Virus record (IMG/VR): IMGVR_UViG_3300043449_002450 | Location: 96,001-160,000 of that record | Direction: 5' to 3' (one strand) | Length of the DNA stretch: 64,000 nt | Source of the DNA: a virus | Shown here: one piece after another, positions 11,066-49,985 of the stretch | Numbering within the stretch: the stretch's first letter is position 1 | How the letters are laid out: each line of letters starts with the position of its first letter | Made by a program: the position numbers and the translations under genes | The notes under the pieces: generated by a model | The model's database searches: none | Told to the model about the DNA's origin: nothing | Seen by the model: only the letters and a program-made list of their open reading frames with translations

Positions 11066-13993
11066 ATGCCTGGCGACGGCTTTAGCCCATCAGAATCGAT
11101 AGGCAATTACACGGAGATACGTGAGGCTGCTAATCTTCTGTCAAGATATGTCTCCTTCACAACAAAAGACAAGCTAGATCTTATTACCAGCATCGCGTCG
11201 ACCAGAGATGTGAATCAAGATCCAACGCAGGACAAAAGCCTGTTTGAGCTTGCTGGCAAGATGGAGCTAATAGTTGGATCAACAGAAGGAACACCTCTAT
11301 ATGAGGCTGCAGACAAGCTGTTGAAGGGACAGCAAAAGCCTCTTAGGTATGATAAATTTACACCAGGTGCTGGATCTATCTTGAATAGCAAAGCAGGCGC
11401 TGCTGGCGGGTTTATCTCCGTATCAAACACTAGCAAGACACCTGTTCCACGTGTCGTGAGCGTTTTCAATCACGCCGCATCAGAGAGAATCAATATCTCA
11501 TCTAGTCTTTCTGACATATCAGCTATGTTTTGTGCGCTTGTGCCGCCTGTCGAGATGTCGCTGTGTGTTCCCTACTTTAATGTCAAGATCATCTACCCAA
11601 GAGAATCTGATGGGCAAGGAAGTCTAAGCTTGATTCGTTACGTGGGCGTGAAGCCTGAGATTAAGCAAGGTAAAACGGGAGAAAAGAAGATCATAAACGA
11701 GACTCTTGGGCGCGGTTATGAGGATCCTCTCATAAATAAGATTGGCTATGACGTCGCAGGGATGGAAATTTTCACTGTGCCGCAGACTCTAGGCCCCAAG
11801 AGCTCAACAATAAACTCTGATGATGAGATTGCTGCTCGAGGTGTCACCATTCTAGACACAAACTCTCCGCTAATGACGCTTGAGTCTGCAAGCATACAGC
11901 AGACAGGAATTGGCGGCAGCTTATACGCCCAGACAAAAGTTGAGCTAAAACTGACTCTTCATGATCGATCCCGATTGGGCGAGATCGAGACGCTTGTAAG
12001 CGCCCAAGCTTTCCCAACGGTCAGTTTTAGAATCACCTACGGCTGGCAGCACCCACACGGCAATAAGATGTCTGGGAATGTCTACGCCAAGCTAATAAAT
12101 GCCATGAAGGTCACACAGGACTTTGTTGTGTCATCAGTTAGCCTTTCGTCTCGTGACTCGGCATCAATGTCAATATCGCTCAGCCTAGTGTCTGCTGGAA
12201 ACTATGTGGCTAAAAGTGCGAAGATATTGACATCTCTTGGCGAGTTGGTTCCCTACAGCGTCCTACAACCGCTTATCAAGCAAGTTGTCAACTTTAGAAC
12301 GGATAAAAATGGTAAGGAGCCATTTAAGGCTGTTGGAACGTCAATTGTGACAAACACAAGCCCAGCAGCTTCCTCTAATAAGTTTATTAGGGTCGATAAA
12401 TTTTATGAATTTAAGAAGATGCTAGATGAGCAGACTCAGCTTGTGGGAGAGAAGGACAGCTACAAGATTGAGAAAATTGTTAAAGCCCTAACAGACATAG
12501 AAACAAACGGCGTTGTGACAGCAGATTCAAGCGCTTACGGAGAGCTATTCGTCTTTCCAAGCACTGACTACGGCTTATACATGCCTAAAAATATTAGACC
12601 AGCACCGACATACGCAGCCAGAATGAATAAGCTTGCTCCCTCCTCATTGACAGAAACATCTAAGAGCTCGAGCGTTCCAGGTGCCATACCGATGTCTGCT
12701 GCAATCTCTAAATACGTTGCGCTACCCCTTCTACTTTCACAACCTGATATTGATGAGGTTAGAGTCCACTTCTACAGCTTTAATGAGACAGCAGGCTACC
12801 AGGCTGCTTCGTGCATAGGCGATTTTCCAATAATTCTGCGAGACTTGATAGCCACCAGAGATCCTAAAAGCAACAAATTGACTGACTACATTGACGGCAG
12901 AACGTCAGTTGAGAAAGTGATGTCCATGATTGTCGCCCAGGCAAGCACCCCCACATCACCCTTCTATGGCCTAACAACACACTTAGATAAACAAGCAGAG
13001 GCAGCGAAACAGACAGATACCGCAGTTCAGAGTGCTGCAAGTGATGAGCAAAGAAAAGAGAAGCAAGCAGAAGCAAAAATCCTTCAAGATAAGCTTAAGT
13101 CTGATACTGATAAAAGGAATAGAGAGATCCTGCGTGAGCTAGGCATAAAGACCTTGTCTGATACGGCTTTCGTTCCACCACGCGTCAAGACACACATGGA
13201 AGTTGTCCCAGCTTATCTAAACGACGATGAAAAGTCAACTGTGCCCAGGCGCCTTCTGCGGATACACGTCTACGACGAGAGGGCAGCTGGCATTGGCAAC
13301 AAGGCTAACTTTTTGGTCTCGCTCATGAATAATGCGACAGGTGTGGGCGCAGTCAATAGTGACATGGAAGTCTCACCAGCGATGAGCGAGCTCCTTGATA
13401 ATCTCACCGAACGAAGCGATGGTCAAATAAAATACTACGCGCTCAAGGACAAGGTCACAGCTAGGAAGTTCATATCTGACTCATATCCGACATTTGTCAT
13501 CGGTGCTGATACAGGCATGATCACTAGCACGACATTTAACTCACAGCCCGCCGGCGATGTTGCATCGTCATATTTGCTGTCTGCACTTGAGGGAGGATCA
13601 ACAGGAAACTCATCCGGTGCGTCAGTCACAAATGACCTCATAGATGATGTCAACATAATTCCCACGACTGTCACCATGAATATGATAGGAAACATATGCA
13701 TGGCAAGGGGTCAGACGTATTTCATAGATTTTAATACCGGCACGACTCTTGATAACACATACACGGTGACTTCTGTGAGCCATAGCATTAAACCCGGCGG
13801 TTTCACGACATCTGTGACATTTGCACCCGTAGCCTCAGCATCCATGAAGTCGGCACTAAGACAGATTACAGAGATCAAGAAGCTTCTAATAAAGCCTCCA
13901 GCATCCACAGCACAGACTAAGACAGGCGAAGCATTTCTAGACAAACAGCGTCGAGGCCACAGCATAGGCAGAACAAGCACAACAGGTGTCTAG
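11066..13993 (+). CDS. Baseplate hub protein (gp27-like)
   Basis: ITYGWQHP, and C-terminal TMNMIGN...GQTYFIDF..TTLDNTYTVTSVSHSIKPGGFTTSV; position after the LysM gene. Confidence 0.65.
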   Translation: MPGDGFSPSESIGNYTEIREAANLLSRYVSFTTKDKLDLITSIASTRDVNQDPTQDKSLFELAGKMELIVGSTEGTPLYEAADKLLKGQQKPLRYDKFTPGAGSILNSKAGAAGGFISVSNTSKTPVPRVVSVFNHAASERINISSSLSDISAMFCALVPPVEMSLCVPYFNVKIIYPRESDGQGSLSLIRYVGVKPEIKQGKTGEKKIINETLGRGYEDPLINKIGYDVAGMEIFTVPQTLGPKSSTINSDDEIAARGVTILDTNSPLMTLESASIQQTGIGGSLYAQTKVELKLTLHDRSRLGEIETLVSAQAFPTVSFRITYGWQHPHGNKMSGNVYAKLINAMKVTQDFVVSSVSLSSRDSASMSISLSLVSAGNYVAKSAKILTSLGELVPYSVLQPLIKQVVNFRTDKNGKEPFKAVGTSIVTNTSPAASSNKFIRVDKFYEFKKMLDEQTQLVGEKDSYKIEKIVKALTDIETNGVVTADSSAYGELFVFPSTDYGLYMPKNIRPAPTYAARMNKLAPSSLTETSKSSSVPGAIPMSAAISKYVALPLLLSQPDIDEVRVHFYSFNETAGYQAASCIGDFPIILRDLIATRDPKSNKLTDYIDGRTSVEKVMSMIVAQASTPTSPFYGLTTHLDKQAEAAKQTDTAVQSAASDEQRKEKQAEAKILQDKLKSDTDKRNREILRELGIKTLSDTAFVPPRVKTHMEVVPAYLNDDEKSTVPRRLLRIHVYDERAAGIGNKANFLVSLMNNATGVGAVNSDMEVSPAMSELLDNLTERSDGQIKYYALKDKVTARKFISDSYPTFVIGADTGMITSTTFNSQPAGDVASSYLLSALEGGSTGNSSGASVTNDLIDDVNIIPTTVTMNMIGNICMARGQTYFIDFNTGTTLDNTYTVTSVSHSIKPGGFTTSVTFAPVASASMKSALRQITEIKKLLIKPPASTAQTKTGEAFLDKQRRGHSIGRTSTTGV

Positions 13994-24060: not shown

Positions 24061-24663
24061 ATGAACATCATCACACGCGTCTCTCCCCTCATTAAGGAAT
24101 GCGAACTTCGCGCTCCGCCTATCATCATCCGCGTCAATAAGTTCGATGAGGACTCAGCAAAGGAGTTTGTCCAGCACATGTCGATTGCCCAGTCTTCTGG
24201 GCAAAATGTGATTCCTGTCGTCATCGACAGCTATGGCGGTCAGGTCTACTCTCTTATGACCATGATCGATGCAATCAAGGGGTCACGAGTTCCTGTCGCG
24301 ACCATCGTCGAGGGTAAGGCGATGTCCTGCGGCGCTGTCCTGTTGACTTGTGGCGCGCCTGGCATGCGCTATGCATCTCCTCACTCCACCATCATGATCC
24401 ACGAGGTAGCGTCTGGTGGTGCTGGCAAGGTCGAGGAGATCAAGGCAGATGCCAAGGAGACAGATCGACTCAATGAGAAGATCTTCAAGCTTATGGCAGA
24501 CAACATTGGTAAGGATGAATCATTCTTCCTCGATGAGATCCATCACAAGAAGCATGCAGACTGGTATCTTGAGCCAGAAGAAGCAAAAGAGATTGGCCTT
24601 ATTAACCATGTTAAGATTCCAGAGATGATGTTAACTGTTGACGTCAAATATAAGTTTGAATAG
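24061..24663 (+). CDS. clpP: ClpP-like serine protease
   Basis: IDSYGG, AMSCGA (Ser), IMIHE (His), DWYL...EAKEIGLI. Confidence 0.88.
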   Translation: MNIITRVSPLIKECELRAPPIIIRVNKFDEDSAKEFVQHMSIAQSSGQNVIPVVIDSYGGQVYSLMTMIDAIKGSRVPVATIVEGKAMSCGAVLLTCGAPGMRYASPHSTIMIHEVASGGAGKVEEIKADAKETDRLNEKIFKLMADNIGKDESFFLDEIHHKKHADWYLEPEEAKEIGLINHVKIPEMMLTVDVKYKFE

Positions 24664-24949
24664 AAGAGCAGAACTACTATTAAAAGTTGTCACATGGAGA
24701 CTCTTCTCCATGTGTTACGGCTTTTCGATCGCATACTTTTTCACAAATAACGCCATGGAATCTCTAGGAATTGTGGCTCTAACAGGATCCACTTTGACAC
24801 TTTTGCAGTGGCTTTTTGAGATTTTGTGGGATAACCACATCAGGGAGCGCTTAAGATATGCCCTTTCAAGAGAACAAGGTAGAGCTAGTTGGCTATTATG
24901 GTGGCGACGAGGCACACGCGCTGTCAGCGTGGACGAGCACAAGCCGTGA
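24638..24949 (+). CDS. Small membrane protein (DUF2061-like); start uncertain
   Basis: LLKVVTWR...IAYFFT...FEILW with two hydrophobic segments. Confidence 0.55.
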   Translation: MTSNISLNRRAELLLKVVTWRLFSMCYGFSIAYFFTNNAMESLGIVALTGSTLTLLQWLFEILWDNHIRERLRYALSREQGRASWLLWWRRGTRAVSVDEHKP

Positions 24950-25523
24950 CCTAACAGAGGAGAAGCGGAATCGAATCCCGACGCTCCTAAAAATGCTTGC
25001 AGAAAATGGACACGAGACACCGTTTGAGAAGAGCTCACTTCATTTTCTAGTGACAGTTGACACAGCAACACACATCCACCTCCTAAAGCATCGCATTGGC
25101 GTGTCCATTAATGGCGAATCAGCACGCTACAAAGAGCTGCGTGATGATAAATACTTTCTTCCAAAAGACTGGCCGCTAGAGGAGCAGGCGCTTTATGTTG
25201 CCTTCATGGAGGACGCTCTCATGCGCTATCATGATGCGCTCGAGCGCTTCTTCGAGAATGGCATGAATCGAAAGCGTGCGAAAGAATCGGCTAGATTCTA
25301 CCTTCCCTATGGCAACCAGGTTACATTGGATGTGATGTTTAACTGGAGATCTTTTAACCACTTTCTTGGCCTACGCATGAAGCAAGACGCCCAGAGAGAA
25401 GTTAGAGAGCTAGCAGAAAAGATGCTACTCCTAGTAAGGAACATTCCAGGTGATCCGTTCAAGCACACGATCGAAGCATTCGGTCATCTTGATGATGTCG
25501 AGCAGTTTTCTCCGCCTTACTAA
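24858..25523 (+). CDS. thyX: Flavin-dependent thymidylate synthase
   Basis: GHETPFE, KHRIGVSINGESARY, ESARFYLP, NWRS..HF..LR...AQRE. Confidence 0.92.
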   Translation: MPFQENKVELVGYYGGDEAHALSAWTSTSRDLTEEKRNRIPTLLKMLAENGHETPFEKSSLHFLVTVDTATHIHLLKHRIGVSINGESARYKELRDDKYFLPKDWPLEEQALYVAFMEDALMRYHDALERFFENGMNRKRAKESARFYLPYGNQVTLDVMFNWRSFNHFLGLRMKQDAQREVRELAEKMLLLVRNIPGDPFKHTIEAFGHLDDVEQFSPPY

Positions 25524-25884: not shown

Positions 25885-26316
25885 ATGCGTGCTCCCCCGT
25901 CGCCTTATAGTCTAATACAAGAGAAGGTCCAGGATGATCCCTGGCGTGTCTTTGTTGTTTGCATATTCTGCAACTTGACTAAGCGTGTTGATGCCGAGCC
26001 CATCATGTGGAAGTTCTTTGACAGATGGCCAGACGCATCATCTGCTGCGCTTGCGGATCAAGAAGAGATCCGTCTAATGATCAAGGATCTTGGTCTTGGA
26101 GAACGACGTAGCAAGACCCTTGTAAGGATGTCTCAAGATTATCTTTCGTGGAACTCCCGTGACCCTGGAGACCTCTATGGTATTGGAGAATATGCAACAG
26201 CAGCCTACAAGATTTTCTGTGAACACGCGTGGAGCCAGATCGCTGAGCCAAAGGACGGCGCACTGAAGAAGTATTGGAAATGGATCAACAACGTGCAGGA
26301 GGTTAGAAATGCCTGA
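25885..26316 (+). CDS. MBD4-like HhH mismatch DNA glycosylase
   Basis: PPSPYSLIQE...DPW.....IFCN.T, LGL..R, LYGIGEYA..AYKIFC, P.D..L.KY..W is collinear with the MBD4 catalytic domain as recalled. Confidence 0.85.
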   Translation: MRAPPSPYSLIQEKVQDDPWRVFVVCIFCNLTKRVDAEPIMWKFFDRWPDASSAALADQEEIRLMIKDLGLGERRSKTLVRMSQDYLSWNSRDPGDLYGIGEYATAAYKIFCEHAWSQIAEPKDGALKKYWKWINNVQEVRNA

Positions 26317-27106
26317 GGGGCCAGAAGTTAGGATCGTTACAGACGGATTGCGACGCTCTATCCTAGACCAGAAAATTGTATCGGCATCTATTATAAGCGG
26401 TCGCTATGCTAAGCGCTCGCCTGATGGGTGGAACCTTCTGCAGGTTCCTAGGCAAGTTATTGATGTGAGCTGCAAGGGTAAATTTATCTACATGTCTCTT
26501 GAAGGCGACACATACCTTCTAAGCACGCTGGGTATGACAGGATCATGGTCATCAAATCTGACTAAGCACAGTCGAATTAAGATTGAGCTAGAGAGCGGTG
26601 GGACGGTCTACTTCAACGATATGAGAAATTTTGGGACAGTAAAATTGATCTCATCTCGGGACCAGCTAGATAAGAAGCTGAAAGAACTGGGACCTGATAT
26701 GCTATCTGAAGACGTGACAGATACAGTCTTTCTTAGATCTATTAGAAGATATAATAAGACACTAGCAGAAGTGTTAATGGACCAGAAAGTAGTTTGTGGT
26801 GTAGGAAACTATCTTAAATCAGAATCTCTATATTTTAGCGGTCTTGATCCTCACCGTCTAACATCAACTTTAAGTGACGAAGAAATTAAAAATCTTAATA
26901 AAGTCATCAAAAAGGTGATTAGAACTTCTTATGAGACAGGAGGCGCGACGATCTACACTTTCTCCAACTTTGATGGAGAGAAGGGCGATTACACCAAGCG
27001 TTTTGCTGTCTACAATCAGACCCAGGATCCTCTGGGCAACAAGATCAAAAGGGAAACGACAAGGGACGGTCGGACAACCTTTTGGGTTCCAGGAATTCAA
27101 AAATAA
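26309..27106 (+). CDS. Fpg/Nei DNA glycosylase-AP lyase, zincless type
   Basis: MPEGPE, KGKF, LGMTG, D.RNFG, LMDQ..V.GVGNY, GRTTFWVP with no Cys finger. Confidence 0.92.
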   Translation: MPEGPEVRIVTDGLRRSILDQKIVSASIISGRYAKRSPDGWNLLQVPRQVIDVSCKGKFIYMSLEGDTYLLSTLGMTGSWSSNLTKHSRIKIELESGGTVYFNDMRNFGTVKLISSRDQLDKKLKELGPDMLSEDVTDTVFLRSIRRYNKTLAEVLMDQKVVCGVGNYLKSESLYFSGLDPHRLTSTLSDEEIKNLNKVIKKVIRTSYETGGATIYTFSNFDGEKGDYTKRFAVYNQTQDPLGNKIKRETTRDGRTTFWVPGIQK

Positions 27107-27115
27107 GAGGAAAAG

Positions 27116-27361
27116 ATGGAAACAAATAGTTACAAGCTTTCTGATGATGTGATTGGTCAGGTTGCAAAGCTTCTACAGCTAGCCATTATCACAGGAACAG
27201 ACGTCGTCGACAATCTCAGGACCCTTAAGGTCAAGCTTGATGTCGATTCTGGTTTGGTTGTTCCAGACCCAGACTACATCAAGACTTTCGACGAGAACCT
27301 AACACGCCTTGTCGCAACAGCAGCGATGGTATCTGCTCATGACGATGAGGGAGAAAACTAG
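27116..27361 (+). CDS. Hypothetical protein
   Basis: GAGG RBS; tightly packed in the operon. Confidence 0.65.
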   Translation: METNSYKLSDDVIGQVAKLLQLAIITGTDVVDNLRTLKVKLDVDSGLVVPDPDYIKTFDENLTRLVATAAMVSAHDDEGEN

Positions 27362-27735
27362 TGGCCGATAAGCTCGATCTAATGTTTGATATGCGGGCCA
27401 AGTTCATGGATGAGCTTCGTAAGAAGCACCCGGACGCCTATCCAGACATGCCCGTTGATCTAACTAGCAAGAAGTCGCAACAGCACCTCAGGGATCTCGC
27501 TCTGCGTGGCGTCGAGGAGGTCTTTGAGGCTGTCCAGCACCTTAAGAACTGGAAGCCACATAGGGAGACTGAGGTCGCCGATTTTGATCGCGCGGCTTTC
27601 AAAGAGGAGATGGTTGATTCATTCAACTACTTCCTGTCTCTTCTCATCCTGATGGGTGTTACACCGGACGAACTTTACCAAGCTTACGTCGATAAAGATC
27701 AGGTCATACACGGTAGAATAAAAGGTAACTACTGA
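27361..27735 (+). CDS. All-alpha dNTP pyrophosphatase (dimeric dUTPase/dCTPase/MazG-like)
   Basis: EEVFEA...WKPH...EEMVD acidic metal-binding motif. Confidence 0.8.
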   Translation: MADKLDLMFDMRAKFMDELRKKHPDAYPDMPVDLTSKKSQQHLRDLALRGVEEVFEAVQHLKNWKPHRETEVADFDRAAFKEEMVDSFNYFLSLLILMGVTPDELYQAYVDKDQVIHGRIKGNY

Positions 27736-27742
27736 GGATCAT

Positions 27743-28678
27743 ATGAAATTGTCTGACGCGCTCCAGCGCCAGCGTGTGTTTTCTGATCTGTTCTTTGATT
27801 CCACCAAGTTTGATGATGCCAAGCGCGAGGAGATGACAAAGTCTTTCGCGCTTGCATTGCATGGCGAAGTATCAGAACTTATCAGCTCGATCAACTTCAA
27901 GGACCATCACTCAAATAGGAAAACTCCTGATCGGGAGAAGATCCTATACGAGTCGATCGACGTGATGCGTTATCTCTTCGCGATCATGAATGTATGGGGA
28001 TGTGAACCTGACGAGGTCGAGACAGCCTTTGAAGATAAGGACACATTCCTACACATGCGCCATCGTATCGAGAACGCAAAGTGGGACGGTCGCCCGGTCC
28101 TCCTCGTCGACGTCGATGATGTTATTGCGCACTTCAGGAAGGACTACTTCGAGTGGCTTAGCGACAAACACGGAATCAACATCCCGTTGGACTATCCGGA
28201 ATACTACGCATCCTCACCACTGCACGAGCGTGGCATCAACCCAGAAGCTTCCTTTAAGGAATTCATTAGCGAGCGTCGACTCCGTGTCATCGAGCCCATA
28301 GAGGGTGTCCGCGCCGTGCTTAGGGAGGCGCAGAAGATGGGTTTTTGGATCCAGCTTCTGACTGCACGTCCCGACCAGAATCTCATTTGCCTCTATGACA
28401 CCTACCACTGGATAGACAAGATGAGCATCCCATTTGATGGGATTGCTTTCAGCGGTGAAAAATACAGGTGGCTTGTGCAGAGTCAGTTTTATGGTCATGT
28501 AGCAGCATGCATCGATGATTCGCCCAAGCACGCGGCAGAGTATGCAAATCACGGTCTTCTTGTAATCTCACCGAAGCTTTCGTATAATGAATCATTGAGA
28601 GACGTAAAAAACGTCATTCGATATGGCAGCGTCGATGAGCTGCTTGAACAGATCACAGCACTTAAAGAAAAGAGGTAA
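27743..28678 (+). CDS. All-alpha NTP pyrophosphatase fused to a HAD 5'(3')-nucleotidase
   Basis: N-terminal GEVSEL...ESID; C-terminal DVDDVI, LTAR, IDDSP. Confidence 0.78.
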   Translation: MKLSDALQRQRVFSDLFFDSTKFDDAKREEMTKSFALALHGEVSELISSINFKDHHSNRKTPDREKILYESIDVMRYLFAIMNVWGCEPDEVETAFEDKDTFLHMRHRIENAKWDGRPVLLVDVDDVIAHFRKDYFEWLSDKHGINIPLDYPEYYASSPLHERGINPEASFKEFISERRLRVIEPIEGVRAVLREAQKMGFWIQLLTARPDQNLICLYDTYHWIDKMSIPFDGIAFSGEKYRWLVQSQFYGHVAACIDDSPKHAAEYANHGLLVISPKLSYNESLRDVKNVIRYGSVDELLEQITALKEKR

Positions 28679-28680
28679 AA

Positions 28681-29628
28681 ATGCCCCAGAATCTAGACCT
28701 ACAACCTATCACCCTTCCCATGGCGATCCGCTTCGGCGAGAAGCCCACAACCGAGTTTGTCAACAGCCTTGATGCACTCAAGCTCGAGCTTGTTGACGCT
28801 CCGGACCCCTACACCATTCGACAGGCTGTCTACTGCTTTGTCAAGTCGACCTGGGCTGACCAGCATGTTCCATTCCGCGATGCATCTGATGCTGATCTCT
28901 CGAAGACTCTTGAGGACGTCTTCGCAGGACGTGCTCTTCCTGCAGCGATGGAGCTGATCGGTCTCACCTTCCTCGTGGGTGGCATCGACACACAGACCGT
29001 GACTCACCTCATCCGCCACCGTGCAGGTTCCTTCGCAGCACAGTGCACCGGCGACCGTTGGCTCTCTCACGAGCGCAGCCTTGTTCCTGGTTCCATCCAG
29101 AACAGTCCGGAGTTCTATGCCCGGTGGCAGGCGCATGTCCAGGAGGCGAAGGAGCTCTACACAGACATGGTCGACTCCAAGCAGATCAGCCTGATGGATG
29201 CTCGCCACGTCCTTCCCAAGTGCCTTGAGACCTTCTACTACATGCGCATGAACATCCGTGACGCGTTTGGTTTCATCAAGCAGCGGCAGGATAAGCAGAT
29301 CCAGCCCGAGGAGGACAACATCCTCGCAGCTCTCATGGCCCGCGAGATCATCAAGATCTTCCCTGAGGCACACGTGGCGATCAACCTCCGCGAGCCTGCC
29401 TGGCACTACATCAAGACGTTTCGCAATGGCACGGGCACCAACCTCTACTGGCCTGATGAGGACAGTGAGAAGCACCTTACATACCACCCGAACGACACGA
29501 TCTACCAGGCAACTCGTGACGACATGAATGGCGCGGATGGCGGCGTCCCACACTTCCGCAAGCTCTGGAATGAGATCCTGTCTGACATCGACACTCTCGT
29601 TACTAACTACAAGAATAGCAAGGTATAA
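28681..29628 (+). CDS. Divergent ThyX-family flavoprotein (motif Ser replaced by Cys)
   Basis: HLIRHRAGSFAAQC, DARHVLP, MNIRDAFGFIKQR, extra C-terminal region. Confidence 0.75.
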   Translation: MPQNLDLQPITLPMAIRFGEKPTTEFVNSLDALKLELVDAPDPYTIRQAVYCFVKSTWADQHVPFRDASDADLSKTLEDVFAGRALPAAMELIGLTFLVGGIDTQTVTHLIRHRAGSFAAQCTGDRWLSHERSLVPGSIQNSPEFYARWQAHVQEAKELYTDMVDSKQISLMDARHVLPKCLETFYYMRMNIRDAFGFIKQRQDKQIQPEEDNILAALMAREIIKIFPEAHVAINLREPAWHYIKTFRNGTGTNLYWPDEDSEKHLTYHPNDTIYQATRDDMNGADGGVPHFRKLWNEILSDIDTLVTNYKNSKV

Positions 29629-29630
29629 CA

Positions 29631-30074
29631 ATGAATAACGTCTACATCGCAAGTGGCTGGTTCTCTCCTGAATGGCTCCAGGAGGTCGAGGACATCAAGA
29701 AGGTCCTCGAGGATCTCGACCTCGCTTACTTCTCTCCCAAGGACTATGCCATCGCAGAGGCTGACTCTTCGACTGACACCCAGAAGCAGATCTTTGACGG
29801 CAACGTCAAACACCTTGACACCTGTGACTGGATGGTCTGCAATACCCGCAATAAGGATATGGGATCGATCTGGGAGGCAGGTTATTTCTACAGTCTCAAC
29901 AAGCCCATCGTCTACTTCTGTGCAGGTCTACCACCGGGCGCCAAGTTTAATCTGATGCTTGCAGCAAGTGGTGTTGCTGTGTGCACATCCGTCCAGGACC
30001 TACGTGATTATCTTCGTCAGTGCAAGGAGGCAGGCAAGCTCTTGCCACGCACCTACGGCGGATTGATCGAGTAG
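29631..30074 (+). CDS. Nucleoside 2-deoxyribosyltransferase / nucleotide N-glycosidase family (DNPH1/MilB-like)
   Basis: VYIASGWF, FSP, IFDGN...L..CD, DMGSIWEAGY...NKP. Confidence 0.85.
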   Translation: MNNVYIASGWFSPEWLQEVEDIKKVLEDLDLAYFSPKDYAIAEADSSTDTQKQIFDGNVKHLDTCDWMVCNTRNKDMGSIWEAGYFYSLNKPIVYFCAGLPPGAKFNLMLAASGVAVCTSVQDLRDYLRQCKEAGKLLPRTYGGLIE

Positions 30075-30637: not shown

Positions 30638-30643
30638 GTGAGC

Positions 30644-31624
30644 ATGAAAGTTCTCATTACTGGCCACCGTGGCTTTATAGCGTCTAATCTTCCAAGAGCA
30701 CTCGAGGATCTGGGTCATGAGGTCGTCGCTCCTCATGATATCCACCTGGACTTCAAAATCAAGTCAGGCGAGCATTGCGTCCACAGGAACTCTGAGGATC
30801 ATTGGGCGCGTGAGCTTGACTATCACGGCGTCGACGTTGTCATACACAACGCTGCGCTTGTTGGAACAGATGTTGTCGCGCTTAATCCCTCTGAGGCAAC
30901 ACTTTCTAACGTGACCGGGACATACAACATCTGTCGAGCTGCTGAAAAATCTGGTGCAGCTTTGCTCTATCTGGGCACAACTGTGATCTATGACACAGAT
31001 CGCTATCAAGATGTTGAGATCACTGAGCGATCCTCGCACGGCCCGCAGACGCTTTACGGTTCTCTGAAACTGGCAGGCGAGCACATCGTCCGCGCACACA
31101 GCACGAGGTGGTCGATCGTCCGCCCGCTCTTCTGCTACGGCGGCGTAGGTGACAACAACTCACTGATCGCGAAGGGGTTCTTTGGTGCTGCCAGCGGCAA
31201 GGAGAAGATCGACATGTTCCTCGATCCGAAGAAGATCAAGGACTACATGCGCGTGGAGGACTTCTGCGATGCTGTGGCAACTGTCGTGGACAAGGAGCTC
31301 TGGAACGATGACTGGAACGTCGCAGCGGAGACGCCTGAGAACACGGGCAAGATCGTCGAGATGATGAGCGAGATCTCGTGCAAGGATCTAAAGGGTGTGG
31401 TAAAATGGCACCCAGGAACCGACTACTTGGGTAACCATCGTCTAAGCTCACAGAAGTTCAGGGATGCATCTGGTTGGTCTCCAAAGTTCGACCTATATGG
31501 TGGCTTGAAAAAGTCATGGAATGACATCCAGCGCAATCTGGGTTCAACGGATTACAATCCCCTCCGCTACCTGGAAGATGCCAAGAAGCGCGGCCTTGAT
31601 CTCACACAATTCTTCAACCGGTGA
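30644..31624 (+). CDS. NAD-dependent nucleotide-sugar epimerase/dehydratase (extended SDR)
   Basis: ITGHRGFIAS, HNAA, NVTGT, YGSLK, KDYM.VED. Confidence 0.85.
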   Translation: MKVLITGHRGFIASNLPRALEDLGHEVVAPHDIHLDFKIKSGEHCVHRNSEDHWARELDYHGVDVVIHNAALVGTDVVALNPSEATLSNVTGTYNICRAAEKSGAALLYLGTTVIYDTDRYQDVEITERSSHGPQTLYGSLKLAGEHIVRAHSTRWSIVRPLFCYGGVGDNNSLIAKGFFGAASGKEKIDMFLDPKKIKDYMRVEDFCDAVATVVDKELWNDDWNVAAETPENTGKIVEMMSEISCKDLKGVVKWHPGTDYLGNHRLSSQKFRDASGWSPKFDLYGGLKKSWNDIQRNLGSTDYNPLRYLEDAKKRGLDLTQFFNR

Positions 31625-34600: not shown

Positions 34601-35197
34601 TCTCTAGTTCTTGTTGAAGGTTTCGGTTCTCTCAAGGAAATGCGAGATGGCACACTCAAGAATCACAACCAGCTCCACAACCTGCTGTCTTCAAACTATG
34701 ATGCCCTTCGCAAGGGTCGCATGGGCATGACCAAGACTGCTGCCAAAAAATACGAGAAAGAACACGGGACCAAGCCAGATGCACTTTCGATGATGATCCC
34801 TGAGGTAAATCATATCGAGGACTGGACGAGAACACAGAAGATCGCAAACATCGTGGAGGTCTTGTCCTCTGCGCCAGAGGATCTGATCTTCCCGCCCGAC
34901 ATCATGCGCAAGGTTAAGAAGTCACAGGTTCAGGCGCTTTATGACCTCGAACCCGGAGAGCCAGGCATCGTATGGTTCTGCGCCACAGCAGTGACCAAGA
35001 AGGTGACCAAGAATAATAAACAGTTCTATGTGTTCGATACAGTTGATGATCAGAGCCGCACTATTCGACTTCGTGTTTGGGGACAGTTCAAGACCGAGCC
35101 TGAGCCCTACACGATCTGGATGGCTGAGGCTGAACGTGATCCAAATTGGGGACCTTCAACAATGGCATCTAAACTTCGGCGTGTGGAGACAAAGTGA
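31631..35197 (+). CDS. dnaE: DNA polymerase III alpha subunit
   Basis: PHP domain HAHS..S..DG, TDHG; GPGRGSA, PDIDSD, GRHAGG, KFDFLGL, RPGP, YGFNKSH. Confidence 0.95.
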   Translation: MSIIRPPDRFVGLHAHSGFSTMDGLGYPAQHIDFVLKNGMDAWALTDHGNGSGLAHAQSHAKKMKKAGQKYRQLNGVEFYFVPSLKNWADQYQDHKDAVAAARSEKKAKEATDIDADDEAGAGHIIENEDETKDASALSVKDDEWKRRYHLVVIAKNKQGLSNLFTLVKRSFKEGYYRFPRIDFDMLKEHGEGLVVSTACIGGIMSNRVLRGQAMQKSDAEIQRDLKNLTDRFVDAVGLENFNLEIQFNKLQAQHDVNRHLIQLHKSTGVPLVATCDSHYPTPDKWKTRELYKKLAWMNAKEEPKPLPAFDELKCELYPKNAEQMWEEFNRHTDDYAFYKGNEELVRDAIERTHDIAWQQCEDVWVDTGAKLPVFATPEKSEFQQLLDLVKERMIDIGLHEKPEYVERVKEELSDIKHLGHASYFLTMYKIFHRAEQKTLLGPGRGSAPGSLVNYILGITQIDPLPFGLLWNRFLGRHRVSWPDIDSDAGDRDVLIDAARELFGDDAVIPVSNFNTLKLKSLVKDVAKFFNVPFDEVNAVTGPLQDEVMPHAKDDDQEKSVFVLKHDDCMKYSPKYKAFMEKYPEVEEHVNALFMENRSIGRHAGGVLVAEPKALAEGMPIIGVRGELQTPWTEGMNFRNLEDNGFLKFDFLGLTLLKDVENCIKRILIGQGNPEPTFLQIKEFFDQNLNCRTVNQDDPEVWKHVYHDGRFVGVFQFTADGARRFCLDAKPTNIGELAALTAIYRPGPLKANVHKLYVKAKKDADNIKYDHPVIQEVLGPTFGYVVFQEQFMMLAQKLAGFSPGEADQLRKTLVKKSLDTLGKKSSEKEAARKQFIDGALALHGVPEKVTGPLWDTIEAFSVYGFNKSHSVSYAIDSYYAAWLHTHYEKEWLATILQSETGNPKGIAKAIAEIKQIGYKFAQVDINYSGLEWQYSEEAQAFVAPLTSVKGLGDAAVAEIFQNRPYRGLDDLFFDEEGEWRHSKLNKGCLESLVLVEGFGSLKEMRDGTLKNHNQLHNLLSSNYDALRKGRMGMTKTAAKKYEKEHGTKPDALSMMIPEVNHIEDWTRTQKIANIVEVLSSAPEDLIFPPDIMRKVKKSQVQALYDLEPGEPGIVWFCATAVTKKVTKNNKQFYVFDTVDDQSRTIRLRVWGQFKTEPEPYTIWMAEAERDPNWGPSTMASKLRRVETK

Positions 35198-36102
35198 TTC
35201 AATTCGATCTTCGTAGCGTGACAATCGAGGGGCCAGACTGCTCAGGCAAGTCAACCCTCTATTATGGGATTCATAAGCTCACAAACTTCAAGTGGAACAT
35301 CCAGGATAGAAGCACATTGTCCATGCTCTGCTACGCGAAGATGTATGGGCGCGATGTGTCTGTCTGGCGCAGGCTTCTTGATGAGGAACTGAAAGTCATC
35401 AATAATGCTGTCATTGTCCTCTTGCCAGAGCCTGATGATCTTGTCCAGCGGTTGCGCACTCGAGGTGATGACTTCCAGGACGAGGAATCTATCGTTCGCC
35501 TCCTGCAGATATTTGAAGAGGAGACGGATAAGATCAAAGGTTATCCTAACGTCAAGGTCATAAGGGCCTTGCCAGATCCTGCTAAGGTTGTTAGCTGGTT
35601 GCAATCGCGCGAGCACCTCACATATTCTGATATCGCTCGTGACATCGAAGCTCATGCTGATGGGACAATCAAGCAGGAAACGACACTACTCAGAGCTTTC
35701 TGGCTTGACTCACACTTCGAGACGTTGGATGAGGCAGCTCTTCACTATGAGCATGAGATCGAGTATTACAATGAGACCAGAGCCAAGCTGATTAGGAAGA
35801 TCAATGATGAGCTTGTAGGTAATAATGAATATAAGCGCCCACAGGATCTAAAGTCCCGTCGCTTTATACTGACGCAGGACACATGCATATCTTATGTCCA
35901 TTTTTTGGTTAGAGATGACTTTGTAATATGCAGCTCGACTGTGAGGTCATCTGAGTGCAGTCAGACGTTCCACAGAGATATTCATTTTATCGCCGATCTT
36001 GCACGCGTGTTCAAGAACATGCTCAACCTCAGCCCTAAGATGCCTGTCTCATTTTCTTTGACCATGGACTCGGCACATATTATCCGCAGCGCTGTAAGAT
36101 AG
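35194..36102 (+). CDS. dNMP kinase fused to a minimal thymidylate-synthase-fold domain
   Basis: EGPDCSGKST and DRS in the N-terminal half; SRR...C.SYVHF.VR...RSSE.......D...SAHI in the C-terminal half. Confidence 0.75.
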   Translation: MIQFDLRSVTIEGPDCSGKSTLYYGIHKLTNFKWNIQDRSTLSMLCYAKMYGRDVSVWRRLLDEELKVINNAVIVLLPEPDDLVQRLRTRGDDFQDEESIVRLLQIFEEETDKIKGYPNVKVIRALPDPAKVVSWLQSREHLTYSDIARDIEAHADGTIKQETTLLRAFWLDSHFETLDEAALHYEHEIEYYNETRAKLIRKINDELVGNNEYKRPQDLKSRRFILTQDTCISYVHFLVRDDFVICSSTVRSSECSQTFHRDIHFIADLARVFKNMLNLSPKMPVSFSLTMDSAHIIRSAVR

Positions 36103-36117: not shown

Positions 36118-37104
36118 ATGTCTAGAGTTTTAGTAACAGGTGGTGCAGGATTCATAGGCTCACACCTGGTTGATGGCCTCGTGAGTCAAGGGTATAAGGT
36201 TGACGTCGTCGATGATCTCAGATCTGGTGATCTTGGCAATCTATCCAACCACACCTATAGAACAGTGCCAGGAATGCTGATAGACCAGCTTGATATTAAT
36301 TTGAAGCTAGACACTCCCATTCGTGTCATCATGGATGATTTTGCTTCTAATGCTGTGCTGAATAGAATTGCGTCAGGAAAGTATGATGTAATATTTCATC
36401 TTGCTGCAGAACCAAGCGTGCCGTTCTCAGTAGAGTGGCCCGCACTTACAACTGATGAGAACTTTTCTAAATATGTTAAATTGCTTACGGCCGCTCGTGG
36501 TAATACTAGCAGAGTAGTTTTTGCATCGTCAGCTGCTGTCTATGGTGATATAAAGCAGCTTCCCATACATGAAGATCTTCCTACCAAGCCTGTGAGTCCT
36601 TATGGACTACAGAAAAAGATGGGTGAGGAGATGGGTGAGATGTTTAGCGATCTTTATAAACTTGATGTTGTCTCGTTAAGGTTTTTTAACGTCTTTGGTC
36701 CACGACAAAAAGGAGCAGGTGCTTATGCAAATGCCATATCATCTTGGTGCTGCGCTGCGTTTGAGAATAGACCACTAAGATCAGATGGCACAGGTGACCA
36801 GACACGTGATCTTTGCTACGTCGGTGAGATAGTGAATGCTTGCATAGCAGCTGGGAGATATACAGGAAAGTTTGCAGGTGAAAAGATCAATGTTTGCACA
36901 GGCACACAGAGAAGCAACAACTCTATCCTTAAGTTCTTTCTTGACCGACATGATAGTTTAAAGATTACAAGCTCACCCAAGCGCCCAGGCGACGTCGATC
37001 ATATTCTAGGATCAGATATCAAGATGCGAAAATACTTAGGAGATTGTGCTACACTAAGCTTTGACGAAGCACTCGATATAACTTTAAAGAGTTGGGGTCT
37101 GTAA
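36118..37104 (+). CDS. NAD-dependent epimerase (UDP-glucose 4-epimerase-like SDR)
   Basis: VTGGAGFIGSH, HLAA, ASSAAVYG, SPYGLQK, LRFFNVFGP, QTRD, RPGD. Confidence 0.9.
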   Translation: MSRVLVTGGAGFIGSHLVDGLVSQGYKVDVVDDLRSGDLGNLSNHTYRTVPGMLIDQLDINLKLDTPIRVIMDDFASNAVLNRIASGKYDVIFHLAAEPSVPFSVEWPALTTDENFSKYVKLLTAARGNTSRVVFASSAAVYGDIKQLPIHEDLPTKPVSPYGLQKKMGEEMGEMFSDLYKLDVVSLRFFNVFGPRQKGAGAYANAISSWCCAAFENRPLRSDGTGDQTRDLCYVGEIVNACIAAGRYTGKFAGEKINVCTGTQRSNNSILKFFLDRHDSLKITSSPKRPGDVDHILGSDIKMRKYLGDCATLSFDEALDITLKSWGL

Positions 37105-38977: not shown

Positions 38978-39218
38978 TATTGAGAAAATGCTGAACCAGA
39001 AGATTCAAGAGAATTTAAAGGTGACGGCGGGCAAAGGCAAGAAGCAGAAAATACTGATTCAGAACGGATTCAAGATTATGCATCTTGAGTCGGGGTTGAT
39101 CTATACAGTCAATAAAGTGACAATTGATGGCAAAAAACCCGTTATACACGCAGTAAGTGGCGACGGTAATGACATCGTGATCACATCAAAAGATTTTAAG
39201 AATTACAAGGGGACATGA
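38955..39218 (+). CDS. Hypothetical late protein
   Basis: Preceded by ATAAATA at 38927-38933. Confidence 0.6.
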   Translation: MTRLTAADIEKMLNQKIQENLKVTAGKGKKQKILIQNGFKIMHLESGLIYTVNKVTIDGKKPVIHAVSGDGNDIVITSKDFKNYKGT

Positions 39219-39913
39219 TGATTAGGAACTCCGACATATCAAGGATAATCAACGAGTCTCTTAAGACTGATACCGACAAGCGACTTAATGAGTCGCTTGT
39301 CGCTCAAGAGAAGCAATTTAATTTAGCCACTGAGTTCCAGAGCGGTGCCACGAAGAAGGCCCACGAAGGACTTTACCAGAAGTATTTAGAGACATTTAAT
39401 AGAATCAGCGCAGAGCTAGATACAGCTGATAGATCAGCAGCAAGTTCTAATGGTTCTGTTTATAGATCACTGAAGGAAGATGAGACCTACAACATGAACG
39501 CCGTGTATCTGCACGAGCTTTATTTTGCGAACATCAGTGATCTAGCCAGTAATATAGGCATGGACTCATTGACGTTCATGCGCTTTTCTAGAGACTTTGG
39601 AGATTTTGACAAGTGGCAGAATGACTTTATTGCTTGCTGTCTGTCTTCTCGATGCGGTTGGGCTATCACCTATTACAACATTTACACGCAGACATACATG
39701 AACACTTTCATGGATCTTCACAGCTTGCAGGTTCCTGTTGGTTGCATACCTGTCCTTGTCATGGATGTTTGGCAACATGCATACTACAAGGATTATCTTT
39801 CTGATGTCAAGACATACACATATGCTATGATGAAAGAAATTAACTGGAGCACCGTGGAGGAGCGCGTCAAGCGTGCTGAGAAGATAGCTGTGGTTATCAA
39901 GGGAGGTATGTGA
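39215..39913 (+). CDS. Fe/Mn superoxide dismutase-like protein with N-terminal leader
   Basis: KAH..LY..Y, LHELYF, DFG, GWA, PVLVMDVWQHAYYKDY, INW. Confidence 0.85.
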   Translation: MMIRNSDISRIINESLKTDTDKRLNESLVAQEKQFNLATEFQSGATKKAHEGLYQKYLETFNRISAELDTADRSAASSNGSVYRSLKEDETYNMNAVYLHELYFANISDLASNIGMDSLTFMRFSRDFGDFDKWQNDFIACCLSSRCGWAITYYNIYTQTYMNTFMDLHSLQVPVGCIPVLVMDVWQHAYYKDYLSDVKTYTYAMMKEINWSTVEERVKRAEKIAVVIKGGM

Positions 39914-48392: not shown

Positions 48393-49985
48393 ATGCACGA
48401 AGAGACTGACAAGCTTGTTCTCTTTGATCATGACACACGCGACCGCCTGTTAAAGGGAGTCAACACACTTGCTGACGCGGTCAAGGTGACGATGGGACCC
48501 CGCGGTAGGAATGTGATCATTGAGCGACCTGGGCAGCACCCTATCCTCACAAAGGATGGCGTGACTGTTGCTAGAGCTATCAACCTGCGTGACAAGGTCG
48601 CCAATCTAGGCGCACAGATGGCTAAGGAAGCAGCCTCGCGGACAGCAGACGAGGCAGGTGATGGGACGACCACAGCCACAGTCCTCACACAGGCGATCTA
48701 TGCTGAAGGGCTCAAGATGCTCGCCGCGGGATACTCAGCCTCAGATCTCAAGAAGGGCATCGACATGGCTGTCGATGAGGCGCTGGATGCTATAACAGGC
48801 ATATCGACACCTGTCGCTGGCGAGGAGGATCTACTTAGGGTTGCAACAGTTTCTGCTAATGGCGAGACAGAGCTGGGCGAGCTCATCTCGCGTGCGATCA
48901 AGACAGTCGGTCAGGACGGTGTTGTCACAGTCGAGGAGGCGAAGGGATTCAGCAGCTCGCTTAACGTGGTATCGGGCGCTCGACTCGAGCGAGGCTACCT
49001 GTCTCCTTATTTTGTCACAAACCAGGATAAGATGGTCTGCGAGCTTGATCGGCCTGTTGTCCTAGTTCTTAATACGCGCCTTGACACGCTTCGTGATATC
49101 GCAGGATTTCTTGAGCGAGTTCTAGCTGCCAAGAGGCCCTTACTCTTGATCTGTGAAGACGTCGATGGTGAGGCATTGCAGGGGCTCGTTGTCAATAAGC
49201 TCAAGGGAATTCTGAATGTCTGCGCAATAAGGCTTCCTGGGATTGGCGAGAGCAGATATGACTACGCGCAAGATCTTGCATCTTTGCTAGGCACCACAGT
49301 CTTTCACACATCTGACGTGAGCAGCCTTGCTTCCACTTCGATCGACTCTCTAGGTTCGTGTCTTCGTGCAACAATCAGCAAGTCAGAGTCTATTCTTGTT
49401 GGCGCAAAGGGCACGGCTGAGTCATACGCAGATCGTGTCGAGGAGATCAGAGCACGTGCTGCTGAGACACCTGACGAGGATGAGCGCGAACATTGCAAGC
49501 GTCGTCTAGCCTTGCTTTCCGGAGGTGTTGCCGTGCTCAAGGTGGGCGGCGCTACAGAGGCTGAACTCCGAGAAAGACGAGACCGAGTTGATGATGCTCT
49601 TCATGCAACGCAGGCAGCTCTTCGTGAAGGAATAGTCCCCGGCGGTGGAGTAGCCCTGGCCCGCGCGAGCAAGCAGCTTTCCGAAGTGCAACCTGGGCCA
49701 TACACCGCGGGCAGGCAGGTCGTGAGGCACGCTTGCAGCATGCCACTACGTCAGATTGTTGCAAACAGTGGTGGTGTTCCAGACATTGTCTTAGCACGCG
49801 TGCTTGAAGGTGAGACACGTCAGGGATACAATGCCTACACTGAGACATACGGTGATATGCTTGAAATGGGCATCATTGATCCTGCTAGAGTGGTTCGTTG
49901 CGCTCTGAAGAACGCAGCATCTGCTGCTGGAATGATGCTTACAGCAGGATGCACTCTTGTCGAGGACGAAGGCGGCGCTGCTTGA
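48393..49985 (+). CDS. groEL: Chaperonin GroEL
   Basis: TMGPRGRNV, TKDGVTVA, AGDGTTTATVL, GYLSPYF, GGVAVLKVG, EGIVPGGG, GIIDP. Confidence 0.95.
   Translation: MHEETDKLVLFDHDTRDRLLKGVNTLADAVKVTMGPRGRNVIIERPGQHPILTKDGVTVARAINLRDKVANLGAQMAKEAASRTADEAGDGTTTATVLTQAIYAEGLKMLAAGYSASDLKKGIDMAVDEALDAITGISTPVAGEEDLLRVATVSANGETELGELISRAIKTVGQDGVVTVEEAKGFSSSLNVVSGARLERGYLSPYFVTNQDKMVCELDRPVVLVLNTRLDTLRDIAGFLERVLAAKRPLLLICEDVDGEALQGLVVNKLKGILNVCAIRLPGIGESRYDYAQDLASLLGTTVFHTSDVSSLASTSIDSLGSCLRATISKSESILVGAKGTAESYADRVEEIRARAAETPDEDEREHCKRRLALLSGGVAVLKVGGATEAELRERRDRVDDALHATQAALREGIVPGGGVALARASKQLSEVQPGPYTAGRQVVRHACSMPLRQIVANSGGVPDIVLARVLEGETRQGYNAYTETYGDMLEMGIIDPARVVRCALKNAASAAGMMLTAGCTLVEDEGGAA

Follow-up and report, generated by a model that had tools for sequence, protein, structure and literature searches.

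We analyzed a 64,000-nucleotide stretch of phage DNA (positions 96,001 to 160,000 of IMG/VR virus record IMGVR_UViG_3300043449_002450), hereafter the window, with a focus on the gene located at 28681-29628 on the + strand. Nearly all genes of the window lie on this strand, and the window belongs to a 176-kb virus record with an estimated completeness of ~52%. The gene is an open reading frame (ORF) encoding a long ThyX-like protein of 315 amino acids (P0001), which is probably a homo-oligomeric ThyX-fold flavoprotein, a repurposed member of a large family found only in viruses. From the pattern of residues that this protein has kept and lost and from the genes that recur around it, we lean, with slightly more confidence than doubt, to the view that it would be a neofunctionalised flavoenzyme whose product is a modified pyrimidine deoxynucleoside monophosphate (dNMP) and not thymidylate (dTMP).

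The gene starts 2 nucleotides after the stop codon of the upstream gene and stops 2 nucleotides before the next start codon, and an AGAGG Shine-Dalgarno sequence is present 7 nucleotides before its start. Gene callers elsewhere begin the protein at Met14; position 28681 is the likely start because homologues share conserved residues from 1 to 13. The Pfam Thy1 domain (PF02511) covers residues 71-229 with 71.4 bits (cut-off 24.8, E 1e-19), and the score with the NCBIfam thyX equivalog model TIGR02170 is 50.3 bits, below the cut-off of 87.9. A sequence search of the PDB gave only marginal matches to the ThyX of PBCV-1 (E 0.04), and no match was obtained when the region was compared by megablast with 50,697 phage records. 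The protein has ~28 residues before the ThyX core and ~80 residues after the Pfam domain, the latter being the C-terminal extension noticed in the initial annotation of this DNA. Predicted promoters and terminators were found in numbers at chance level. An antisense ORF of 317 amino acids (28699-29652, - strand) spans the whole gene and is preferred to it by a length-greedy gene caller; it has no family match and was rejected as a shadow ORF.

The protein contains the motifs R112-H113-R114-x7-C122-TGDR, M-D-A-R175 and Q-R202-x-D, together with GTNLYWP in the C-terminal insert. Its profile-profile alignment to canonical ThyX (hhalign, probability 99.6) places C122 on the signature Ser, and T-G-D-R126-W127 occupies the place of the canonical x-R-Y. 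Of the signature RHR-x7-S followed by x-R-Y, the RHR is present and the remainder is replaced, as the initial annotation had stated for the Cys at the position of the Ser and the TGDR after it. The same annotation considered the N-terminal H.S/T..E motif to be absent. This is correct for the His and the Ser/Thr, since the canonical G-H-x-S/T-x-x-E-H has become R-A-L-P-A-A-M-E (His to Ala85, Ser/Thr to Pro87), but the Glu survives, as E91, in the wider family alignment. Glu144 of canonical ThyX is replaced by Met. By alignment to T. maritima ThyX, R112 corresponds to R78, R114 to R80, R175 to R147 and R202 to R174, and these four Arg are conserved in 95–100% of 94 family representatives. The positions conserved at 90% or more in the long family (E91, R112, R114, Y160, A174, R175, P179, R202, P228 and P258) are all common to canonical ThyX. 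Ser88 of T. maritima was reportedly once proposed as the C6 nucleophile. His53 is said to stack on the folate pterin (Koehn et al. 2012; PDB 4gt9). In canonical ThyX, R174 activates deoxyuridylate (dUMP), S88, R90 and Y91 assist methylene transfer from the flavin carbinolamine, and mutation of any of the latter three residues leads to large rate losses (PMC8316439). As judged from the alignments, the residues that hold flavin adenine dinucleotide (FAD) and the nucleotide phosphate and those that activate the pyrimidine are kept, and the folate-stacking His and the Ser-x-Arg-Tyr loop for methylene transfer are replaced, with Ala-Leu-Pro and Gln-Cys-Thr-Gly-Asp-Arg now standing at these sites.

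The AlphaFold2 (AF2) model of the protein has a predicted local distance difference test (pLDDT) score of 83.9. The VIA structural comparison matched it to M. tuberculosis ThyX (3gwc) with Z 16.4 and a root-mean-square deviation of 3.3 over 214 aligned residues, and to T. maritima ThyX with Z ~15; the next unrelated chain drops sharply to Z ~5. A homodimer modelled together with FAD scored 0.81, versus 0.00 for the best control, which may reflect likeness to solved ThyX tetramers; of 30 solved one-chain pairs, 20 attain the mark set for this score, as does 1 of 23 single chains. In the dimer model, contact agreement is 96% or more, with a partner pLDDT of 89 or higher. Residues 2-16, the loops with the RHR and the Cys, and residues 248-285 of the C-terminal insert are all part of the modelled interface. 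The model suggests that the family-specific extensions reshape the active site between subunits.

In a large protein collection, 1234 homologues were found at E <1e-5, mostly of 314-333 amino acids, and Cys-T-G-D-R is found in all of the 121 close homologues that were read. A search of all 50%-identity representatives returned 485 clusters at E <1e-3, 122 of them at E <1e-10. In a wide alignment the sequences form two deep branches, one reading V-T-H-L-I-R-H-R...S-F-S-A-Q-C-T-G-D-R and the other T-H-Q-L-V-R-x-R-I-G-V-T-F-S-Q-Q-C-[TS]-G-D. A tree obtained with a quick IQ-TREE maximum-likelihood search separates the canonical ThyX sequences (support 89) from the long family. Of 97 non-canonical cluster representatives, 66 have the Cys, which, as far as these sequences tell, is ancestral in the family and was lost at least nine times. 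The long ThyX-like family is large, restricted to viruses and abundant in ocean viromes. Its Atlas clusters are 86–97% viral and IMG/VR holds 221 matches to it, and the only match in 185,579 species genomes of cellular organisms is on a contig of a metagenome-assembled genome. Among 50,697 cultured-phage records, Geobacillus phage GR1 has the only full-length member (45.7% identity, with the same Q-C-T-G-D-R). When these records were searched with a query from the second deep branch, GR1 was again alone at full length, the rest being ordinary short ThyX. No fusion longer than 553 amino acids was found in the family. P0143 is a ThyX-like fusion of 551 amino acids, of which the N-terminal 270 residues have only a sub-threshold match to family 2 glycosyltransferases (GT2) and no PDB or PHROG match. 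P0148 (515 amino acids), in which a ThyX-like protein is fused with an HNH homing endonuclease, is uninformative on function. Databases label the long family thymidylate synthase; in the full-text literature, no paper was found on the long ThyX-like family, on ThyX plus a deoxyribosyltransferase in phages, or on phage GR1.

The ThyX-like gene is the fourth of a tight run of genes whose order is preserved, with variable small inserts, in 81 IMG/VR loci. The run and the neighbouring genes considered here are the following:

24858-25523, + strand: canonical ThyX (P0003), likely a real thymidylate synthase (Pfam Thy1 120 bits; TIGR02170 104.5 bits versus a cut-off of 87.9).
27116-27361, + strand: conserved protein of 81 amino acids at the head of the gene run (same position in 64 of the 81 loci).
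27361-27735, + strand: short MazG/dUTPase_2-like nucleotide pyrophosphohydrolase (Pfam dUTPase_2; phrog_12184, E 6e-18; 78 of the 81 loci).
27743-28678, + strand: all-alpha MazG/dUTPase_2-like dNTP pyrophosphatase fused to an NT5C-type HAD 5'-deoxynucleotidase (P0002; Pfam NT5C E 5e-11, dUTPase_2 E 6e-5).
28681-29628, + strand: long ThyX-like flavoprotein.
29631-30074, + strand: nucleoside 2-deoxyribosyltransferase (NDT) family protein (Pfam Nuc_deoxyrib_tr E 8e-17; best PDB match the NDT 6evs, E 2.6e-11; 75 of the 81 loci).
30638-31624, + strand: nucleotide-sugar epimerase/reductase of the short-chain dehydrogenase/reductase (SDR) type, context only (Pfam Epimerase E 6e-29; phrog_540; SDR cluster in 57 of the 81 loci).
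35194-36102, + strand: 302-amino-acid protein with a Tmk/dNK-like P-loop kinase (residues 5-142) fused to a mini ThyA-fold domain (residues 142-300) (alignment A3, AF2, Foldseek, VIA).
36118-37104, + strand: second SDR, of the NDP-sugar 4,6-dehydratase/epimerase type, context only (Pfam Epimerase E 1e-47, GDP_Man_Dehyd E 7e-43).

In most of the 81 loci, the MazG-HAD fusion gene immediately precedes the ThyX-like gene. The NDT-family protein keeps the catalytic Glu of the W-E-x-G motif, and the first SDR is a possible supplier of a sugar donor. The 81-amino-acid protein has no Pfam or PHROG match and was not found in the distant contexts scanned (see below). Upstream of the run are genes for ribonucleotide reductase (RNR), ClpP, canonical ThyX and two DNA glycosylases; downstream follow the first SDR, DnaE, the 302-residue kinase-like protein, the second SDR, thymidine kinase (TK), a DHH phosphoesterase and deoxycytidylate (dCMP) deaminase. 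The proteins encoded between cassette genes in related loci are mostly unknown, or are DnaJ/Hsp70, sulfotransferase or DUF7487 proteins, and are uninformative. HNH and GIY-YIG homing-endonuclease-like ORFs and other small ORFs are also often inserted or fused in the IMG/VR loci, with the cassette order being kept.

The canonical ThyX gene, which the initial annotation placed 3 kb upstream of the long form, is indeed there, at a distance of 3.16 kb; in this copy the motif begins with KHR, and an additional residue stands ahead of its Ser. Both forms are found together in 19 of 41 fragmentary phage records of the lineage. Five records have an estimated completeness of at least 60%: four of them carry both forms (87, 77, 70 and 61% complete) and the fifth (70%) the long form only. 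A second Thy1 protein also accompanies the long form in L092, an unrelated phage whose polymerase is of family A. This second protein (L092:10974-11711; 245 amino acids, Pfam 127 bits) has K-S-N at the RHR site and keeps S-R-R-Y. Because the canonical and long forms have been retained together over 50–94% sequence divergence, they are likely to have different jobs.

To look beyond this lineage, distant family members at 25–49% identity were sampled and their contigs (labelled L082 and onwards) scanned with hidden Markov models (HMMs) built from the neighbour genes of the window. A MazG-like gene is present in all 10 distant contexts examined. In a phage with a PolB polymerase (L082), MazG, NDT and kinase genes are followed by a GT2-like/ThyX-like fusion. 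L084 has MazG, NDT, a YfbR-type HD nucleotidase and the ThyX-like gene, and three contigs of the second branch (L085-87) have NDT, MazG, the ThyX-like gene and a kinase-like gene. L091 carries NDT, the ThyX-like gene, MazG and a kinase fusion; L094 carries NDT, a kinase-like gene, the ThyX-like gene, a TET-associated glycosyltransferase and a dUTPase. A MazG-HAD fusion gene is located upstream of the ThyX-like gene in L090 and, with a kinase-like gene after the latter, in the PolA phage L092. The Ser variant of the family (L088), with ThyX-like, NDT and HD nucleotidase genes, retains the same kind of neighbours as members with the Cys. The cassette of GR1 comprises NDT, HD, glycosyltransferase, kinase, RNase H, nitroreductase, ThyX-like and mini-ThyA genes, with MazG further on. 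In L093, a double MazG, the ThyX-like gene, a kinase gene, a mini-ThyA gene, a gene of the uracil-DNA glycosylase (UDG) family and radical SAM genes are found. NDT genes thus stand beside ThyX-like genes in L082, L084, L085-87, L088, L091, L094 and GR1, and kinase genes abut them in L082, L085-87, L093 and L094. The cassette recurs across phages with DnaE, PolA and PolB replicases. That HAD and HD nucleotidases replace each other in a non-orthologous manner speaks well for selection on the function and not on mere gene order.

Two of these contexts show further genes. In L093 (L093:6001-12927), the genes after the run of ThyX-like, kinase and mini-ThyA genes encode a UDG-superfamily protein, two radical SAM proteins and a ferredoxin/DHO_dh-like protein, and the whole may form a more elaborate cluster for base modification. 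In GR1, genes for a nitroreductase/dihydropteridine-reductase-type flavoprotein, the ThyX-like protein and a 151-residue 'hypothetical' protein matching the mini ThyA domain are consecutive (11286-13424), and amidoligase and gamma-glutamylcyclotransferase genes are located ~10 kb downstream of this run.

The protein encoded at 35194-36102 is the second candidate for chemistry at C5. In alignment A3 its P-loop is invariant, and so are R222-R223, C231 (in D-S-C-I-S), R251-S252, D262 and S293-x-H295 in its C-terminal half. By eye, the residues of this mini ThyA domain mirror R126-R127, P-P-C146-H, R166-S167, N177 (Asp262 here) and D205-x-H207 of ThyA. An Asp at the ThyA N177 position is a dCMP-type residue (PMC13326640). 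The AF2 model (pLDDT 93.8) splits into a dNK/Tmk-fold domain (VIA Z ~12) and a ThyA-fold domain. For the latter, the top Foldseek matches are the phage flavin-dependent dCMP hydroxylases 9iqu and 9iqc, followed by ThyA, MilA and T4 gp42. In VIA it matches 9iqu (the dCMP hydroxylase AfhB of phage HY126) with Z 12.2 over 148 residues; 9iqc is a riboflavin-dependent dCMP monooxygenase, and MilA and ThyA are within one Z unit of the best match. The domain has ~150 residues and lacks the N-terminal half of ThyA, and Pfam does not recognise it. The Pfam ThyA model, for which the mini domain is too divergent, had no match in five phage records including GR1. In GR1, L089 and L093, mini-ThyA and the kinase are encoded by separate genes, and the mini-ThyA gene comes immediately after the ThyX-like gene or with one gene in between; in L091, as in the lineage of the window, mini-ThyA is fused to the cassette kinase. 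The HMM scan did not detect mini-ThyA in L082, L084, L088, L090 and L094, some of these contigs being short. The cassette carries two rebuilt relatives of two unrelated thymidylate-synthase folds.

Glycosyltransferase genes recur near the ThyX-like genes. Apart from the one inside the GR1 cassette, a TET-associated glycosyltransferase (TAGT, PF20691, E 1e-19) is encoded 0.9 kb downstream of the ThyX-like gene in two contigs (L094:7848-8726 and L095:2829-3707), with no TET/JBP gene within the 13 kb read around them. The virus record under study has eight glycosyltransferase genes, of the GT1 and GT2 families, besides the two SDR sugar enzymes in the window. Outside the window, four or more GT2 genes and three to four GT1 genes are clustered in this record (G000:C1:28000-46000).

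Other neighbours of the cassette should be mentioned. Just upstream of it, the window encodes a HhH-GPD glycosylase (Nth-like, 143 amino acids; 25885-26316, + strand) and a Fpg/Nei-family glycosylase (265 amino acids; 26309-27106, + strand) in which the N-terminal P-E catalytic pair is present, both being conserved in 51 of the 81 related loci. The Nth- and Nei-like classes excise oxidised or reduced pyrimidines, for example 5-hydroxycytosine, 5-hydroxyuracil and dihydropyrimidines. Glycosylases for pyrimidine lesions are odd neighbours for a putative pyrimidine-modifying pathway. The window also has genes typical of giant phages, encoding ClpP (24061-24663), a protein with the C-terminal domain of Fe/Mn superoxide dismutase (39215-39913), a GroEL-type chaperonin (48393-49985) and a sigma-70 factor (51349-52089). 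DnaJ and Hsp70 genes are carried by related loci.

How could these proteins work together? The MazG-like pyrophosphatase would release a pyrimidine dNMP, which the ThyX-like protein would bind together with FAD. The flavin would be used to place a non-methyl group on C5, the likeliest being an oxygen-bearing one (hydroxymethyl or hydroxyl), and Cys122, at the C6-proximal site, may help through addition to C6 or in an acid role. The ThyX-like enzyme would act alone or with its mini ThyA-fold partner. The cassette kinase would then phosphorylate the product and the phage DnaE polymerase would incorporate it, the pyrophosphatase-nucleotidase fusion and NDT would drain and recycle the competing canonical nucleotide, and glycosyltransferases may later decorate the base. 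An oxygen-bearing handle is our best guess because glycosyltransferases recur nearby, because the partner resembles dCMP hydroxylases, and because the ThyA-fold 5-hydroxy-dCMP synthases use flavin and O2. As to the canonical base that would be displaced, the Asp of the mini-ThyA domain and the dCMP deaminase gene recall the cytosine logic of T4, and the R174-type Arg of the ThyX-like protein would suit a uracil ring. The initial annotation had also proposed a neofunctionalised flavoenzyme, with non-methyl chemistry at C5 or with another nucleotide as its substrate. Neofunctionalisation is supported by the score below the equivalog cut-off, the lost folate and methylene residues, the coexisting canonical ThyX and the conserved nucleotide cassette, whereas non-methyl chemistry at C5 is one of several readings. 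In a more specific version, which we advance tentatively and consider to have distinctly less than an even chance, the ThyX-like and mini-ThyA proteins would form a two-protein flavin system that installs a new, for example oxygen-bearing, group at C5, with an uncharacterised, probably glycosylated base as the result in a widespread lineage of giant marine phages and in GR1, and with the nucleotidase and deoxyribosyltransferase acting as a shunt that removes or recycles the canonical nucleotide.

Several observations weigh against a function in making a modified base. The residues of the ThyX core are retained and are compatible with the conversion of dUMP to dTMP, and in the complete genome of GR1 the long form is the only relative of ThyX, or of Pfam-detectable ThyA. 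In nine or more lineages another residue (Ser, Gly, Thr, Ala, Val or Asn) takes the place of the Cys, and the middle His of RHR also varies across the family. As the Cys was repeatedly lost, it is not essential family-wide; a role of Cys122 as an indispensable covalent nucleophile throughout the family was ruled out, Gly, Ala or Val filling the site in some lineages. Confidence in the AF2 model is low around the substrate loop (pLDDT 61-69). A single phage lineage accounts for all 81 syntenic loci and only ~10 distant contexts are independent, and nucleotide-metabolism genes cluster in many large phages that have no modified base. Concerning glycosylation, neither TAGT nor Tet_JBP was found in this half-complete record, and its glycosyltransferase cluster, ~50 kb away from the ThyX-like gene, may serve another purpose.

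The best surviving alternative is that the long form is a divergent but genuine flavin-dependent thymidylate synthase, converting dUMP to dTMP in an ordinary module for thymidylate synthesis and salvage. The dUTPase-like enzyme would supply dUMP, the nucleotidase, NDT and TK would recycle deoxyribose to deoxyuridine and dUMP, and the kinase would make dTDP; indeed each neighbour in the cassette can be read as belonging to pyrimidine salvage. The residues for FAD and phosphate and the R174-type residue are conserved. Since GR1, without another ThyX or ThyA, has the long form alone, a divergent true synthase must be taken seriously, and about half of the partial records likewise show no canonical ThyX. 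The Ser88Cys mutant of T. maritima ThyX reportedly remains active. This mutant was stable enough to crystallise (3g4c). However, the protein falls under the thyX equivalog cut-off and has lost the equivalents of His53, Arg90 and Tyr91, residues whose mutation severely impairs canonical ThyX (PMC8316439). The long form has been retained beside canonical ThyX over 50–94% divergence and in the unrelated PolA phage, and a second C5 enzyme domain, with the ThyA fold, and glycosyltransferases recur in the cassette. We therefore regard a role in ordinary thymidylate synthesis as rather unlikely.

Alternatively, the ThyX-like protein could be the flavin-handling partner of the mini ThyA-fold protein, supplying it with reduced flavin or with a flavin-bound oxygen or one-carbon unit. 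The mini-ThyA protein, with its Cys and Asp, would bind dCMP and receive the group, in a manner resembling the flavin-dependent dCMP hydroxylases, and its nearest structures are precisely the phage enzymes 9iqu and 9iqc. It adjoins the ThyX-like gene in GR1, L089 and L093, with at most one gene between them, and is fused to the kinase in the window lineage and in L091. It also has just ~150 residues and lacks the N-terminal half of ThyA. ThyA-fold 5-hydroxy-dCMP synthases hold flavin loosely (PMC13326640), and in GR1 a nitroreductase-type flavin reductase gene is located immediately upstream of the ThyX-like gene. Against such a division of labour, the ThyX-like protein keeps its own phosphate-binding and pyrimidine-activating Arg residues, suggesting a substrate of its own, the mini-ThyA domain was undetected in L082, L084, L088, L090 and L094 (some contigs being short), and no fusion of the two proteins was found. 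A pure partner role is in our opinion doubtful. Finally, it is very improbable that the protein uses flavin plus its Cys to reduce the pyrimidine C5=C6 bond, in the style of dihydrouridine synthase, dihydroorotate dehydrogenase or dihydropyrimidine dehydrogenase, giving a dihydropyrimidine deoxynucleotide without carbon transfer: a folate-stacking His lost and a Cys gained beside the stacked pyrimidine, the ability of ThyX to hold H2-dUMP (5jfe) and the Nth-like and Nei-like glycosylase genes conserved upstream in 51 of the 81 loci would agree with it, but dihydropyrimidines are not known to serve as programmed bases of DNA, many lineages do without the Cys, and the associations with glycosyltransferases and kinases fit a hydroxyl-bearing base better.

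Coming back to the production of a modified pyrimidine dNMP, it is useful to compare the proposed system with known ones. To our knowledge, essentially the only reaction known for ThyX until now is the methylation of dUMP or, by PolB, of UMP. With the flavin-dependent thymidylate synthases ThyX/FDTS (EC 2.1.1.148; T. maritima TM0449, M. tuberculosis ThyX, PBCV-1 A674R), the long form shares the Thy1 fold, the RHR and the equivalents of E58, R78, R80, R147 and R174, and it may, as the dimer model predicts, also form a homo-oligomer with the motif loops at the subunit interface. In contrast to them, it is ~100 residues longer, with conserved N- and C-terminal additions, occurs in viruses only and, in the more complete records, usually stands beside a canonical ThyX. 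PolB of Streptomyces cacaoi, the C5-methylase of UMP/dUMP in polyoxin synthesis (4p5a/4p5b; Z 15.2 over 201 residues), is likewise a ThyX fold taken off housekeeping dTMP duty; however, PolB still methylates with canonical chemistry, and it belongs to a bacterial antibiotic cluster and not to a phage replication module. The T4 pathway (gp56 dCTPase, gp42 dCMP hydroxymethylase, gp1 dNMP kinase and glucosyltransferases) also combines a dNTP pyrophosphatase, a thymidylate synthase-like C5 enzyme and a dNMP kinase, and has ordinary thymidylate synthase, dCMP deaminase, TK and RNR alongside. Here, in contrast, the C5 candidates are a ThyX-fold protein and a mini ThyA domain fused to a kinase, and the 5'-nucleotidase and the deoxyribosyltransferase have no T4 counterpart. 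The phage ThyA-fold 5-hydroxy-dCMP synthases (RB69 gp48, DLP3 gp80 and HY126 AfhB) use flavin and O2 to hydroxylate dCMP at C5, require a cognate kinase and feed glycosylation (PMC13326640). They include the structures nearest to the cassette mini ThyA domain (9iqu/9iqc). Nevertheless, they have the ThyA fold and bind flavin loosely, whereas the protein studied here has the ThyX fold, with FAD as the native cofactor of that fold, and no sequence relationship to them.

We have described here the structure of the long ThyX-like family, the dispensability of its Cys, a cassette that is shared across replicase types, the exchange of HAD and HD nucleotidases within this cassette, the mini-ThyA partner, the links to glycosyltransferases and the failure of the long form in the equivalog test. 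The cultured thermophilic phage GR1, with its compact cassette in which flavin reductase, ThyX-like and mini-ThyA genes are consecutive, is an experimental handle on the system. DNA modifications govern the escape of phages from restriction enzymes, glycosylases and CRISPR, and they yield tools for DNA chemistry. If the proposed function is true, the ThyX-like proteins would represent new enzymology for the ThyX fold and probably a new route to modified phage DNA, and the shunt formed by the nucleotidase and the deoxyribosyltransferase would be a strategy not known from T4-like systems. An unrecognised base of this kind could moreover affect the sequencing and the counting of marine phage DNA.

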